Assembly: GCF_003334785.1 (NCBI RefSeq)
Contig: NZ_QOWV01000023.1
Length of the DNA stretch: 45,913 bases
Reading direction: 5' to 3' (one strand)
DNA from: Escherichia coli
GTDB taxonomy: Bacteria > Pseudomonadota > Gammaproteobacteria > Enterobacterales > Enterobacteriaceae
The notes under the pieces were generated by a model, which was given only the letters and a program-made list of their open reading frames with translations, had not been told where the DNA came from and made no database searches. The position numbers and the translations under genes were made by a program. This document shows, in pieces, positions 5,552-45,913 of this stretch; position 1 is the stretch's first letter; each line of letters opens with the position of its first letter.

Positions 5552-5660
5552 TGCCGGATGCGGCGTGAACGCCTTATCCAGCCTACAAATTTGTGCAAAT
5601 TCAATAAATTGCAGGAAATACGTAGGCCTGATAAGACGCGTCAAGCGTCGCATCAGGCAT
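5552..5660. repeat. REP/BIME repetitive extragenic palindromes between convergent phr and dtpD
   Basis: GCCGGATGCGGCGTGAACGCCTTATCCAGCCTACA and GTAGGCCTGATAAGACGCGTCAAGCGTCGCATCAGGCA are canonical E. coli REP units. Confidence 0.75.
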
Positions 5661-22287: not shown

Positions 22288-23004
22288 ATGAGACTCGAGT
22301 TTTCAATTTATCGCTATAACCCGGATGTTGATGATGCTCCGCGTATGCAGGATTACACCCTGGAAGCGGATGAAGGTCGCGACATGATGCTGCTGGATGC
22401 GCTTATCCAGCTAAAAGAGAAAGATCCCAGCCTGTCGTTCCGCCGCTCCTGCCGTGAAGGTGTGTGCGGTTCCGACGGTCTGAACATGAACGGCAAGAAT
22501 GGTCTGGCCTGTATTACCCCGATTTCGGCACTCAACCAGCCGGGCAAGAAGATTGTGATTCGCCCGCTGCCAGGTTTACCGGTGATCCGCGATTTGGTGG
22601 TAGACATGGGACAATTCTATGCGCAATATGAGAAAATTAAGCCTTACCTGTTGAATAATGGACAAAATCCGCCAGCTCGCGAGCATTTACAGATGCCAGA
22701 GCAGCGCGAAAAACTCGACGGGCTGTATGAATGTATTCTCTGCGCATGTTGTTCAACCTCTTGTCCGTCTTTCTGGTGGAATCCCGATAAGTTTATCGGC
22801 CCGGCAGGCTTGTTAGCGGCATATCGTTTCCTGATTGATAGCCGTGATACCGAGACTGACAGCCGCCTCGACGGTTTGAGTGATGCATTCAGCGTATTCC
22901 GCTGTCACAGCATCATGAACTGCGTCAGTGTATGTCCGAAGGGGCTGAACCCGACGCGCGCCATCGGCCATATCAAGTCGATGTTGTTGCAACGTAATGC
23001 GTAA
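22288..23004 (+). CDS. sdhB: Succinate dehydrogenase iron-sulfur subunit
   Basis: 238-aa ORF with Cys clusters (CxxCxxC...CP) typical of SdhB. Confidence 0.97.
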   Translation: MRLEFSIYRYNPDVDDAPRMQDYTLEADEGRDMMLLDALIQLKEKDPSLSFRRSCREGVCGSDGLNMNGKNGLACITPISALNQPGKKIVIRPLPGLPVIRDLVVDMGQFYAQYEKIKPYLLNNGQNPPAREHLQMPEQREKLDGLYECILCACCSTSCPSFWWNPDKFIGPAGLLAAYRFLIDSRDTETDSRLDGLSDAFSVFRCHSIMNCVSVCPKGLNPTRAIGHIKSMLLQRNA

Positions 23005-23005
23005 A

Positions 23006-23126
23006 CCGTAGGCCTGATAAGACGCGCAAGCGTCGCATCAGGCAACCAGTGCCGGATGCGGCGTGAACGCCTTATCCGGCCTACAAGTCATTACCCGTAG
23101 GCCTGATAAGCGCAGCGCATCAGGCG
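23006..23126. repeat. REP/BIME cluster (three REP units) between sdhB and sucA
   Basis: CCGTAGGCCTGATAAGACGCGCAAGCGTCGCATCAGGCA, GCCGGATGCGGCGTGAACGCCTTATCCGGCCTACA and CCGTAGGCCTGATAAGCGCAGCGCATCAGGCG. Confidence 0.75.
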
Positions 23127-23304
23127 TAACAAAGAAATGCAGGAAATCTTTAAAAACTGCCCCTGACACTAAGACAGTTTTTAAAGGTTCCTTCGCGAGC
23201 CACTACGTAGACAAGAGCTCGCAAGTGAACCCCGGCACGCACATCACTGTGCGTGGTAGTATCCACGGCGAAGTAAGCATAAAAAAGATGCTTAAGGGAT
23301 CACG

Positions 23305-26106
23305 ATGCAGAACAGCGCTTTGAAAGCCTGGTTGGACTCTTCTTACCTCTCTGGCGCAAACCAGAGCTGGATAGAACAGCTCTATGAAGACTTCTTAACC
23401 GATCCTGACTCGGTTGACGCTAACTGGCGTTCGACGTTCCAGCAGTTACCTGGTACGGGAGTCAAACCGGATCAATTCCACTCTCAAACGCGTGAATATT
23501 TCCGCCGCCTGGCGAAAGACGCTTCACGTTACTCTTCAACGATCTCCGACCCTGACACCAATGTGAAGCAGGTTAAAGTCCTGCAGCTCATTAACGCATA
23601 CCGCTTCCGTGGTCACCAGCATGCGAATCTCGATCCGCTGGGACTGTGGCAGCAAGATAAAGTGGCCGATCTGGATCCGTCTTTCCACGATCTGACCGAA
23701 GCAGACTTCCAGGAGACCTTCAACGTCGGTTCATTTGCCAGCGGCAAAGAAACCATGAAACTCGGCGAGCTGCTGGAAGCCCTCAAGCAAACCTACTGCG
23801 GCCCGATTGGTGCCGAGTATATGCACATTACCAGCACCGAAGAAAAACGCTGGATCCAACAGCGTATCGAGTCTGGTCGCGCGACTTTCAATAGCGAAGA
23901 GAAAAAACGCTTCTTAAGCGAACTGACCGCCGCTGAAGGTCTTGAACGTTACCTCGGCGCAAAATTCCCTGGCGCAAAACGCTTCTCGCTGGAAGGCGGT
24001 GACGCGTTAATCCCGATGCTTAAAGAGATGATCCGCCACGCTGGCAACAGCGGCACCCGCGAAGTGGTTCTCGGGATGGCGCACCGTGGTCGTCTGAACG
24101 TGCTGGTGAACGTGCTGGGTAAAAAACCGCAAGACTTGTTCGACGAGTTCGCCGGTAAACATAAAGAACACCTCGGCACGGGTGACGTGAAATACCACAT
24201 GGGCTTCTCGTCTGACTTCCAGACCGATGGCGGCCTGGTGCACCTGGCGCTGGCGTTTAACCCGTCTCACCTTGAGATTGTAAGCCCGGTAGTTATCGGT
24301 TCTGTTCGTGCCCGTCTGGACAGACTTGATGAGCCGAGCAGCAACAAAGTGCTGCCAATCACCATCCACGGTGACGCCGCAGTGACCGGGCAGGGCGTGG
24401 TTCAGGAAACCCTGAACATGTCGAAAGCGCGTGGTTATGAAGTTGGCGGTACGGTACGTATCGTTATCAACAACCAGGTTGGTTTCACCACCTCTAATCC
24501 GCTGGATGCCCGTTCTACGCCGTACTGTACTGATATCGGTAAGATGGTTCAGGCCCCGATTTTCCACGTTAACGCGGACGATCCGGAAGCCGTTGCCTTT
24601 GTGACCCGTCTGGCGCTCGATTTCCGTAACACCTTTAAACGTGATGTCTTCATCGACCTGGTGTGCTACCGCCGTCACGGCCACAACGAAGCCGACGAGC
24701 CGAGCGCAACCCAGCCGCTGATGTATCAGAAAATCAAAAAACATCCGACACCGCGCAAAATCTACGCTGACAAGCTGGAGCAGGAAAAAGTGGCGACGCT
24801 GGAAGATGCCACCGAGATGGTTAACCTGTACCGCGATGCGCTGGATGCTGGCGATTGCGTAGTGGCAGAGTGGCGTCCGATGAACATGCACTCTTTCACC
24901 TGGTCGCCGTACCTCAACCACGAATGGGACGAAGAGTACCCGAACAAAGTTGAGATGAAGCGCCTGCAGGAGCTGGCGAAACGCATCAGCACGGTGCCGG
25001 AAGCAGTTGAAATGCAGTCTCGCGTTGCCAAGATTTATGGCGATCGCCAGGCGATGGCTGCCGGTGAGAAACTGTTCGACTGGGGCGGTGCGGAAAACCT
25101 CGCTTACGCCACGCTGGTTGATGAAGGCATTCCGGTTCGCCTGTCGGGTGAAGACTCCGGTCGCGGTACCTTCTTCCACCGCCACGCGGTGATCCACAAC
25201 CAGTCTAACGGTTCCACTTACACGCCGCTGCAACATATCCATAACGGGCAGGGCGCGTTCCGTGTCTGGGACTCCGTACTGTCTGAAGAAGCAGTGCTGG
25301 CGTTTGAATATGGTTATGCCACCGCAGAACCACGCACTCTGACCATCTGGGAAGCGCAGTTCGGTGACTTCGCCAACGGTGCGCAGGTGGTTATCGACCA
25401 GTTCATCTCCTCTGGCGAACAGAAATGGGGCCGGATGTGTGGTCTGGTGATGTTGCTGCCGCACGGTTACGAAGGGCAGGGGCCGGAGCACTCCTCCGCG
25501 CGTCTGGAACGTTATCTGCAACTTTGTGCTGAGCAAAACATGCAGGTTTGCGTACCGTCTACCCCGGCACAGGTTTACCACATGCTGCGTCGTCAGGCGC
25601 TGCGCGGGATGCGTCGTCCGCTGGTCGTGATGTCGCCGAAATCCCTGCTGCGTCATCCGCTGGCGGTTTCCAGCCTCGAAGAACTGGCGAACGGCACCTT
25701 CCTGCCAGCCATCGGTGAAATCGACGAGCTTGATCCGAAGGGCGTGAAGCGCGTAGTGATGTGTTCTGGTAAGGTTTATTACGACCTGCTGGAACAGCGT
25801 CGTAAGAACAATCAACACGATGTCGCCATTGTGCGTATCGAGCAACTCTACCCGTTCCCGCATAAAGCGATGCAGGAAGTGTTGCAGCAGTTTGCTCACG
25901 TCAAGGATTTTGTCTGGTGCCAGGAAGAGCCGCTCAACCAGGGCGCATGGTACTGCAGCCAGCATCATTTCCGTGAAGTGATTCCGTTTGGGGCTTCTCT
26001 GCGTTATGCAGGCCGCCCGGCCTCCGCCTCTCCGGCGGTAGGGTATATGTCCGTTCACCAGAAACAGCAACAAGATCTGGTTAATGACGCGCTGAACGTC
26101 GAATAA
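23305..26106 (+). CDS. sucA: 2-oxoglutarate dehydrogenase E1 component
   Basis: 933-aa ORF recognised as SucA. Confidence 0.97.
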
Positions 26107-27360: not shown

Positions 27361-27625
27361 GTAGACCGGATAAGGCATTATCGCCTTCTCCGGCAATTGA
27401 AGCCTGATGCGACGCTGACGCGTCTTATCAGGCCTACGGGACCACCAATGTAGGTCGGATAAGGCGCTAGCGCCGCATCCGACAAGCGATGCCTGATGTG
27501 ACGGTTAACGTGTCTTATCAGGCCTACGGGGACCACCAATGTAGGTCGGATAAGGCGCAAGCGCCGCATCCGACAAGCGATGCCTGATGTGACGTTTAAC
27601 GTGTCTTATCAGGCCTACGGGTGAC
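27361..27625. repeat. Tandem BIME array of REP pairs: ~90-bp unit, ~2.4 copies
   Basis: Units at 27402-27490, 27491-27581 and partial 27582-27621, each GCCTGATG(C/T)GACG...GTCTTATCAGGCCTACGGG...CCACCAATGTAGGTCGGATAAGGCGC.AGCGCCGCATCCGACAAGCGAT. Confidence 0.8.
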
Positions 27626-43732: not shown

Positions 43733-44278
<546 letters not shown>

Positions 44279-44287
44279 GAGAATTGC

Positions 44288-45079
44288 ATGAGCAGTAACT
44301 TCAGACATCAACTATTGAGTCTGTCGTTACTGGTTGGTATAGCGGCCCCCTGGGCCGCTTTTGCTCAGGCACCAATCAGTAGTGTCGGCTCAGGCTCGGT
44401 CGAAGACCGCGTCACTCAACTTGAGCGTATTTCTAATGCTCACAGCCAGCTTTTAACCCAACTCCAGCAACAACTTTCTGATAATCAATCCGATATTGAT
44501 TCCCTGCGTGGTCAGATTCAGGAAAATCAGTATCAACTGAATCAGGTCGTGGAGCGGCAAAAGCAGATCCTGTTGCAGATCGACAGCCTCAGCAGCGGTG
44601 GTGCAGCGGCGCAATCAACCAGCGGCGATCAAAGCGGTGCGGCGGCATCAACGACGCCGACAGCTGATGCTGGTACTGCGAATGCTGGCGCGCCGGTGAA
44701 AAGCGGTAATGCAAACACGGATTACAATGCAGCTATTGCGCTGGTGCAGGATAAATCCCGCCAGGATGACGCAATGGTGGCATTTCAGAATTTCATCAAA
44801 AATTACCCTGATTCAACTTACCTGCCAAACGCCAATTATTGGCTGGGTCAGTTAAACTACAACAAGGGTAAAAAAGATGATGCGGCGTACTATTTTGCTT
44901 CGGTAGTGAAAAACTATCCGAAGTCACCAAAGGCTGCAGATGCGATGTTTAAAGTCGGCGTCATCATGCAGGACAAAGGTGACACCGCAAAAGCGAAAGC
45001 CGTATACCAGCAGGTTATCAGTAAATACCCTGGTACTGATGGCGCTAAACAGGCACAAAAACGTCTGAACGCGATGTAA
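44288..45079 (+). CDS. cpoB: Cell-division coordinator CpoB (TPR-repeat periplasmic protein)
   Basis: 263-aa ORF with signal peptide, coiled-coil and C-terminal TPR-like repeats; formerly ybgF. Confidence 0.93.
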   Translation: MSSNFRHQLLSLSLLVGIAAPWAAFAQAPISSVGSGSVEDRVTQLERISNAHSQLLTQLQQQLSDNQSDIDSLRGQIQENQYQLNQVVERQKQILLQIDSLSSGGAAAQSTSGDQSGAAASTTPTADAGTANAGAPVKSGNANTDYNAAIALVQDKSRQDDAMVAFQNFIKNYPDSTYLPNANYWLGQLNYNKGKKDDAAYYFASVVKNYPKSPKAADAMFKVGVIMQDKGDTAKAKAVYQQVISKYPGTDGAKQAQKRLNAM

Positions 45080-45243: not shown

Positions 45244-45319
45244 GGGTCGTTAGCTCAGTTGGTAGAGCAGTTGACTTTTAATCAATTGGTCGCAGGTTCG
45301 AATCCTGCACGACCCACCA
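45244..45319 (+). tRNA. lysT: tRNA-Lys (anticodon UUU)
   Basis: 76-nt GGGTCGTTAGCTCAGTTGGTAGAGCAGTTGACTTTTAATCAATTGGTCGCAGGTTCGAATCCTGCACGACCCACCA, CCA encoded. Confidence 0.95.
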
Positions 45320-45454
45320 ATCGCTAAGGTGGAAGCGGTAGTAAAACGTGAAGGATAACGTTGCATGAGCAACGGCCCGAAGGGCGAGACGAAGTCGAGT
45401 CATCCTGCACGACCCACCACTAACATAGTTAGTTGTAGTATCCAGCGTAGTATC

Positions 45455-45530
45455 GGGTGATTAGCTCAGCTGGGAGAGCACCTCCCTTACAAGGAGGGGG
45501 TCGGCGGTTCGATCCCGTCATCACCCACCA
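45455..45530 (+). tRNA. valT: tRNA-Val (anticodon UAC)
   Basis: 76-nt GGGTGATTAGCTCAGCTGGGAGAGCACCTCCCTTACAAGGAGGGGGTCGGCGGTTCGATCCCGTCATCACCCACCA. Confidence 0.95.
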
Positions 45531-45533
45531 CTC

Positions 45534-45609
45534 GGGTCGTTAGCTCAGTTGGTAGAGCAGTTGACTTTTAATCAATTGGTCGCAGGTTCGAATCCTGCAC
45601 GACCCACCA
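45534..45609 (+). tRNA. lysW: tRNA-Lys (anticodon UUU)
   Basis: Identical 76-nt tRNA-Lys sequence, 3 nt after valT. Confidence 0.95.
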
Positions 45610-45758
45610 GTTTTAACATCGAAGACAGATGTTAAGCGTGTAGGATAACGTTGCGTCAGCAACGGCCCGTAGGGCGAGCGAAGCGAGTCATCCTGCACGA
45701 CCCACCACTAATGACGGTGGGTTCGGTGGAAGTAGTTTGTAGTATCCAGCGCAGTATC

Positions 45759-45834
45759 GGGTGATTAGCTCAGCTGGGAGAGCACCTCCCTTACAAGGAG
45801 GGGGTCGGCGGTTCGATCCCGTCATCACCCACCA
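45759..45834 (+). tRNA. valZ: tRNA-Val (anticodon UAC)
   Basis: Identical 76-nt tRNA-Val sequence. Confidence 0.95.
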
Positions 45835-45837
45835 CTC

Positions 45838-45913
45838 GGGTCGTTAGCTCAGTTGGTAGAGCAGTTGACTTTTAATCAATTGGTCGCAGGTTCGAATCCT
45901 GCACGACCCACCA
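45838..45913 (+). tRNA. lysY: tRNA-Lys (anticodon UUU); ends exactly at the window edge
   Basis: Identical 76-nt tRNA-Lys sequence ending in CCA at 45911-45913. Confidence 0.9.

Follow-up and report, generated by a model that had tools for sequence, protein, structure and literature searches.

What does the DNA in front of sucA do, and in which molecule does it act? The product of sucA, E1 of 2-oxoglutarate dehydrogenase, works where carbon and nitrogen metabolism branch. Expression of sucA is already known to involve transcription that reads through from Psdh as well as a weak internal promoter, and RNase III and the small RNA GlnZ also take part. The stretch under study is the sdhB-sucA spacer of E. 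coli. sdhB ends at position 23004 of the window, that is, the whole stretch of 45,913 nt that was analysed, and the ATG of sucA is at 23305. A sequence-only reading of this DNA had drawn attention to two palindromes 50–110 nt 5′ of sucA, in a place where the suc half of the operon was expected to have a promoter of its own or to be processed.

The palindromes lie exactly where that reading had put them, including the shorter palindrome CTACGTAG that is enclosed by the first (Table 1), and the distance to the sucA ATG is correct as well. The first inverted repeat is larger than had been recognised; its arms comprise 15 nt each (23186–23200 and 23217–23231) and are 80% complementary. Are these simply chance palindromes without function? 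There are 152 inverted repeats in the window that have an exact seed of 8 nt and arms no more than 8 nt apart, and the fold of P2, the hairpin formed by palindrome 2, is modestly better than that of shuffled sequences (z = −2.3; 6 of 200 shuffles were as good or better). P1, which contains palindrome 1, folds with −17.5 kcal/mol (z = −3.75), and none of 200 shuffles was as good. Considered alone, the two palindromes rise above chance only weakly; it is the comparative evidence that lifts them.

Table 1 Positions of features in the sdhB-sucA spacer, in window coordinates
Feature	Position	Strand	Description
REP/BIME cluster	23008–23128	+	3′ of the sdhB stop codon; outside the conserved leader
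P0	23141–23192	+	5′ arm 23141–23159, 3′ arm 23175–23192; 18 bp, one bulge
P1	23186–23231	+	outer stem GGUUCCUU (23186–23193) / AAGUGAACC (23223–23231)
P1 inner stem	23195–23200 / 23217–23222	+	GCGAGC/GCUCGC; palindrome 1 (GCGAGC/GCTCGC in DNA)
Inner palindrome	23203–23210		CTACGTAG; in the variable P1 loop
Candidate anti-SD	23225–23232	+	GUGAACCC; complements GGGAUCAC; overlaps the 3′ side of the P1 outer stem
P2	23236–23255	+	palindrome 2, CACGCACA (23236–23243) / TGTGCGTG (23248–23255), loop TCAC; in RNA an 8-bp stem CACGCACA/UGUGCGUG, loop UCAC
Extended −10-like element	23254–23262	+	TGgTAGTAT; hexamer TAGTAT 23257–23262
Linker	23256–23273	+	18 nt, conserved, single-stranded, between P2 and P3
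GlnZ sRNA target	23262–23271	+	UCCACGGCGA; in the linker, six bases after P2
Primary transcription start	23270	+	G; Cappable-seq, U00096.2 757894; 35 nt 5′ of ATG
P3	23274–23294	+	UAAGCAU/AUGCUUA, A-rich loop; adjoins the SD
SD	23294–23299	+	AAGGGA; followed by the sucA start codon 23305–23307

For the comparison, one genome per species was scanned, which gave 80 sucA loci from the Enterobacteriaceae and five Erwiniaceae. The length of the spacer ranges from about 200 to 660 nt among these loci, the differences being REP, ERIC-like and other insertions, and the conserved core is the last ~175 nt 5′ of the sucA ATG. Base pairs were counted in a MAFFT alignment of 55 species (E. coli and 54 other Enterobacteriaceae) that had not been fitted to a structure. 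As controls, the 3′ partners were slid by one to three columns or the columns were shuffled (n = 500); these statistics ignore phylogeny. In the defined helices 97.4% of the cells pair, compared to 22–50% (at most 50.5%) after sliding. Nine pairs have changed on both sides versus 4.1 ± 0.9 in the column shuffles, and nine was reached in 0 of 500. All five apical pairs of P2 are among those changed on both sides and 97% of their cells pair; examples are CACGCACA/UGUGCGUG, CACGCAUA/UAUGCGUG and GACGUGUGC/GCGUACGUC. In the P1 inner stem, the pair 35–60 is GU in 28, GC in 15 and AU in 11 sequences, and the pair 36–59, GC in 44, is switched to AU in nine. The P1 inner stem, P2 and P3 were independently recovered by RNAalifold. 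Compensatory and wobble changes preserve the pairs to an extent that the controls do not reach, as is expected of a structured leader.

The kind of variation is also informative with respect to the strand. G·U or U·G was found in 103 cells of the 55-species alignment, as against 39 non-pairs of every kind, and A·C accounts for at most three of the few non-pairs that were itemised. This excess of G·U over non-pairs argues for an RNA made from the + strand; neither an antisense RNA nor a palindrome that acts as DNA would be expected to show it. By this pattern of variation, P1 and P2 are the stems of two conserved sense-strand RNA hairpins. A chance origin of the two stems is effectively refuted by the covariation, the conservation in 75 species representatives and the retention across two E. 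coli alleles; what little probability it has left is negligible, and it holds only for the inner CTACGTAG.

The loops of P1 and P2 differ in sequence and length among species while the stems persist. Among the aligned relatives, loop length varies from ~8 to 27 nt in P1 and from 4 to ~15–20 nt in P2. In place of CTACGTAG, relatives have CTACTTAG, CTACATAG or CTACACAG, and the second E. coli allele lacks the palindrome too; it was dismissed as a chance palindrome, and the attention that the sequence-only reading had given to it was misplaced. The second leader allele is present in 1,114 of the 5,426 complete E. coli genomes, with 80–90% identity over the 180-nt query (~87% in the examples that were fetched), and is common to E. 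albertii. The alleles were compared using three sequences (L082 1–341, L083 11–403 and L002 651–1206) and 23005–23310 of the window. In the second allele, the inner stem of P1 is rewritten to GCGGAC/GUCCGC and the P1 loop is replaced, and the stem of P2 is retained with a loop of 12 nt instead of 4 nt. Since stems are kept and loops are replaced between the two E. coli alleles, selection acts on the stems and not on the loops. The second allele also has extra tandem BIME units, each of which terminates in AAAGAAATGCAGAAACCGTAGG. In E. coli B2.3 (L083, ~200–260) the 5′ arm of P0 has given way to a REP element; this natural deletion of the P0 5′ arm is found in the sole genome out of 5,426 in which the leader query is covered by less than 80%.

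The two hairpins belong to a leader of ~175 nt with four helices, arranged in the order P0-P1-P2-linker-P3-SD. P0 is a long AU-rich hairpin (fold z = −4.8), and other genera have insertions in its loop; its last seven nucleotides, GGUUCCU (23186–23192), are common to P1. The arms of P0 are conserved in 19 species (alignment A2), 13 of which have a single C·A mismatch on the + strand, and in the Erwiniaceae (Pantoea, Mixta, Erwinia) P0 is rewritten with full compensation. Read on the − strand, the C·A mismatch would be a G·U. As a simple covarying helix within the Enterobacteriaceae, P0 had to be rejected; variation there mostly makes C·A mismatches. P3 (fold z = −4.4) has the compensatory variants UAAGCAC/GUGCUUA and UAAGCCU/AGGCUUA, and GGGAUCAC (23296–23303), in the SD region, is invariant. 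With a riboswitch in mind it should be mentioned that the SD, the −10 element and the GlnZ site account for most of the conserved unpaired stretches.

Other roles for this stretch were considered and rejected. There is no terminator-like site, stem plus U tract, in 22900–23450, which speaks against an intrinsic terminator or attenuator; the sequence 3′ of P2 is GUAGUAUCC and that 3′ of P3 is AGGGAUC, as opposed to the U tract of a terminator. A nine-codon open reading frame over the 5′ arm of P0 (MQEIFKNCP, ATG 23137 to TGA 23166) is unconserved: Huaxiibacter reads ATG TAG and the frame shifts in other relatives. An open reading frame of 86 aa (23063–23323) was ruled out as coding by indels in the loops whose lengths are not divisible by three.

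How widespread is the leader? A covariance model was built from the alignment and used to search the loci of the species representatives as well as the window. Its scores were 92–154 bits for the representatives of 75 enterobacterial species, as against 27–36 bits for five Erwiniaceae, and it found no second copy within the window. Wherever the whole leader is present, it is there in a single copy per locus, on the + strand, and ends at the sucA ATG; position and strand are thus fixed across species, as in a cis-acting structured leader. With the leader (23131–23310) as query, 5,433 places were found in 5,426 genomes, with a median of one per E. coli genome. In the Erwiniaceae the P1 inner stem is ACGGGC/GCUCGU, and an unrelated hairpin of the GNRA type, CCGC-GAAA-GCGG, is found in place of P2 (L069, L073, L076, L078 and L080, ~1110–1160). 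The leader has no match in Rfam: cmscan of 22900–23500 at E ≤ 10 gave only naRNA4 (23011–23081), and neither sucA (RF01070) nor sucA-II (RF01758) nor sucC (RF01759) matched anywhere in the window at the gathering threshold.

The naRNA4 match lies in the REP/BIME cluster, in which a repeat search found the inverted repeats I1–I10. When the full spacer is folded, its longest duplex (~30 bp) is predicted to be that of REP1/REP2 in this cluster. P1 and P2 resemble REP/BIME elements in being GC-rich palindromes in the same spacer. However, they have no REP similarity, the naRNA4 match does not extend to them, and they occur once per genome compared to ~39 places per genome for a REP-containing query; an assignment to REP/BIME was therefore rejected. 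Further matches at the Rfam gathering level in the window are two of naRNA4/REP in the sucB-sucC spacer (27453–27615), the ES036 sRNA (5587–5629), the CpoB/ybgF thermometer (44179–44317) and a tRNA cluster with RtT repeats (45244–45910).

What, then, became of the expected internal promoter? A 5′-triphosphate start was mapped by Cappable-seq at 757894 of U00096.2, in which the sucA ATG is at 757929, with an RRS of 20.09 and a log2 enrichment of 5.15 in M9 glucose (PMC4782308 supplement). This start, 23270 in the window, is weak: the RRS of the sdhC promoter is 180 vs 20.1 here (PMC4782308 supplement). The start was undetected by TSS-seq in Kim 2012. The element TGgTAGTAT, spotted by eye and unique in the window, is located 7 nt 5′ of it; a TGn followed by TAnnnT 5–8 nt 5′ of a mapped 5′-triphosphate end is what characterises the extended −10 class. 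The TG makes up the last two bases of the 3′ arm of P2, so that the sigma-70 element resides in DNA overlapping the 3′ end of P2 and not in the hairpins as such. At the −35 position (23234–23239) the sequence is GGCACG, with two of six matches. A canonical −35/−10 promoter was rejected, as no site in 22900–23450 reached 9 of the 12 positions of TTGACA-N16–18-TATAAT. Two primary starts inside sdhB, 22636 and 22644, were seen in two independent datasets, TSS-seq of Kim 2012 and Cappable-seq (RRS 15.6 and 2.9); they are ~660–670 nt 5′ of sucA.

The expectation of an internal promoter or processing site was sound to this extent: a weak start is mapped inside the interval 23130–23305, where the sequence-only reading had asked for 5′ ends, and processing of the spacer by RNase III has been published. 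The palindromes themselves as promoter elements or cleavage sites fared less well; their variation is that of sense-strand RNA hairpins. Relative to 23270, P2 spans −34 to −15 and P1 −84 to −39, positions at which they could serve as DNA operators, bound by a dimeric protein (IHF, Nac or another) that regulates the internal promoter. The suc promoter is reportedly repressed by IHF. Binding of Nac to it was described by Aquino 2017, as cited in PMC9731577. On DNA, however, the 103 G·U cells would be asymmetric half-sites, the spacing of the half-sites is too variable for the fixed footprint of a dimer, and compensatory changes have substituted the very sequences of the stems. Operators of this kind are very improbable.

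RNase III leads to another reading, in which P1 and/or P2 are RNase III sites or stem-loops that protect the 5′ end of the sucABCD mRNA after processing. Processing of the spacer goes back to Cunningham & Guest 1998 (as cited in PMC9731577 and PMC5371410), to whom PMC9731577 also credits three RNase III sites in the spacer, all 5′ of where GlnZ binds. In E. coli, repression of SucA by GlnZ requires RNase III according to a preprint (bioRxiv 10.1101/2022.04.01.486790). A cut further upstream would place P0/P1 at the new 5′ end, and P1 is at least a helix of ~14 bp, albeit interrupted. However, this length and the 8 bp of P2 are both short for RNase III, and longer duplexes are nearby, namely REP1/REP2 and P0. 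RNase III prefers about two helical turns, or near-continuous duplexes of ~20 bp and more. The RNase III RNA-seq signal of Gordon 2017 is at genome position 758515, or 23114 in the window, in the REP cluster, and the Term-seq data (Adams 2021 supplement) list no ends within 23190–23260. Cleavage in or protection by P1 and P2 is improbable. The same supplement has a 3′ end at 23130, just past the last REP hairpin, and a reproducible one, not Rho-dependent, at 23306 (genome 758707), the U of the sucA AUG. The latter end is 3 nt past GGGAUCAC and is undiscussed in Adams 2021; it could mark a stable leader fragment.

Directly 3′ of hairpin 2 is an element that the sequence-only reading had overlooked, the target of GlnZ. 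UCCACGGCGA is complementary to the GlnZ seed, which was published as 5′-UUGCCGUGGAAA-3′ (PMC9731577), and is unique in the window. In the alignment the site is either conserved or reads UCUACGGCG, with a G·U. Base pairing with GlnZ represses sucA, and the pairing was validated by compensatory mutation (PMC9731577; bioRxiv 10.1101/2022.04.01.486790). The target of an Hfq-dependent sRNA is therefore the linker, and not the hairpins. In Salmonella and Citrobacter the site is separated from P3 and the SD by an insertion, and repression by GlnZ persists despite it (PMC9731577). In some Citrobacter (L003, L022 and L047, ~1065–1180) we observed an ERIC-like insert of ~70 to 145 nt exactly between the GlnZ site and P3, which fits the reported −166 GlnZ site of Salmonella. 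A lookalike of the seed complement, CUACGGCAA, is present in the Erwiniaceae, but 5′ of the replacement hairpin and not 3′ of it. As P2 is replaced there and the site is on the other side, the exact order of P2 followed by the site is not essential.

The best explanation for these observations, to which we assign a probability of roughly 60%, is that P1 and P2 serve as scaffolding in the long read-through sucA mRNA and keep the GlnZ site and the SD exposed. In this model, P1 and P2 would be present only in the long mRNA that is read through from the sdh promoter and processed in the spacer. By compacting ~65 nt into helices they would leave the 18-nt linker and the P3-SD module defined and accessible, and this long mRNA would be the form that is open to control by GlnZ, Hfq and RNase III. 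In the DNA, P2 falls within the core of the weak extended −10 promoter, whose transcripts begin at 23270, only four bases 5′ of P3. Such a short mRNA has neither P0 nor P1 nor P2 and lacks nearly all of the GlnZ site; it should escape GlnZ/Hfq/RNase III control. From this we infer two classes of sucA mRNA that would differ in their regulation. Against this explanation count the replacement of P2 in the Erwiniaceae, the repression by GlnZ across the insertion in Salmonella and Citrobacter, and the TSS-seq data of Kim 2012, in which 23270 is missing. Moreover, it may be to the promoter, and not to the RNA, that the linker owes part of its conservation. It should also be said that scaffolding and exposure, as proposed here for the hairpins, is a generic role and hard to falsify.

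A more elaborate use of the same helices would be a bistable switch that depends on processing. There, in read-through RNA prior to processing, the 5′ arm of P0 would take GGUUCCU and so prevent the P1 outer stem, GUGAACCC would pair with GGGAUCAC and mask the SD, and RNase III would relieve the masking; loss of the P0 5′ arm would let the P1 outer stem form and free the SD. Binding of GlnZ might influence the same balance between P0 and P1. Predicted folds are consistent with this: E. coli RNAs starting at 22995, 23130 or 23131 adopt the P0 extension plus the SD-closing helix, in the MFE as well as in the centroid structure, and those starting at 23176 or 23186 form the P1 outer stem with an open SD. 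RNAalifold chose the SD-closing helix on alignment A1, both segments are invariant in 53–54 of 54 sequences, and the Term-seq 3′ end at 23306 is 3 nt beyond the SD-closing helix. In addition, SucA is lower in an rnc14 mutant and SucB is unchanged (PMC9731577). If the switch were true, translation of sucA would depend on processing and it would be SucA, not SucB, that falls in an rnc mutant. However, covariation is silent on the switch, and the invariance of each partner has another explanation, SD and spacing for the one and the P1 outer stem for the other. The Enterobacteriaceae bacterium LSJC7 (L071, ~1120–1140) has AGGGAUC instead of GUGAACC, which preserves the pairing of the P1 outer stem with GGUUCCU but abolishes the complementarity to the SD region. 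Moreover, the consensus of the long form in 22 species favours the P1 outer stem, and a cut at the RNase III coordinate 23114 is 5′ of P0, so that the processed RNA would still carry the P0 5′ arm. On balance we consider the switch unlikely.

Irrespective of whether the hairpins scaffold the long mRNA, as we favour, or do more, the leader invites comparison with known systems. The adhE 5′ UTR is an RNase III-processed leader that needs cleavage for full translation. The sucA leader is like it in being long and structured, in the RNase III cleavage of the spacer and in the lower SucA of the rnc mutant; it differs in that, for sucA, the masked SD and its release on cleavage are predictions. Another close system in the literature is the GlnZ-sucA interaction (Miyakoshi 2022, PMC9731577; the preprint of Walling 2022), which concerns the identical locus, the target being the linker 3′ of P2. 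In their accessible text these papers describe the pairing, Hfq and the dependence on RNase E or RNase III, but not the flanking hairpins or their covariation.

Structured elements in front of sucA have been found in other bacteria. The sucA RNA motif of the Burkholderiales (Rfam RF01070; PMC1950547, Weinberg et al. 2007) is likewise a covarying multi-stem element that is found only 5′ of sucA, with stems that reach the SD, and is confined to one order or family. In contrast, the E. coli leader belongs to another taxon, has no Rfam similarity at E ≤ 10, is located inside an operon, carries an sRNA target and overlaps an internal promoter. The sucA-II motif of the Pseudomonadales (Rfam RF01758; PMC2864571, Weinberg et al. 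2010) is a candidate cis-regulatory structure 5′ of sucA in another γ-proteobacterial order; the E. coli leader has no covariance-model match to it. Judged by these comparisons of sequence and model, the E. coli leader shows that structured sucA leaders evolved independently in three proteobacterial lineages.

What is new here is, first, a covarying four-helix leader in all sampled Enterobacteriaceae that is uncatalogued in Rfam; second, the placement of the GlnZ site in its conserved single-stranded linker; and third, that transcripts starting at 23270 skip both hairpins, which predicts two classes of sucA mRNA. The leader could help to explain why repression by GlnZ needs RNase III. If the switch should turn out to be true, E. 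coli would have a structured sucA regulator of its own beside the orphan sucA and sucA-II motifs. The E. coli leader is genetically tractable and could clarify why sucA, of all genes, attracts structured leaders.
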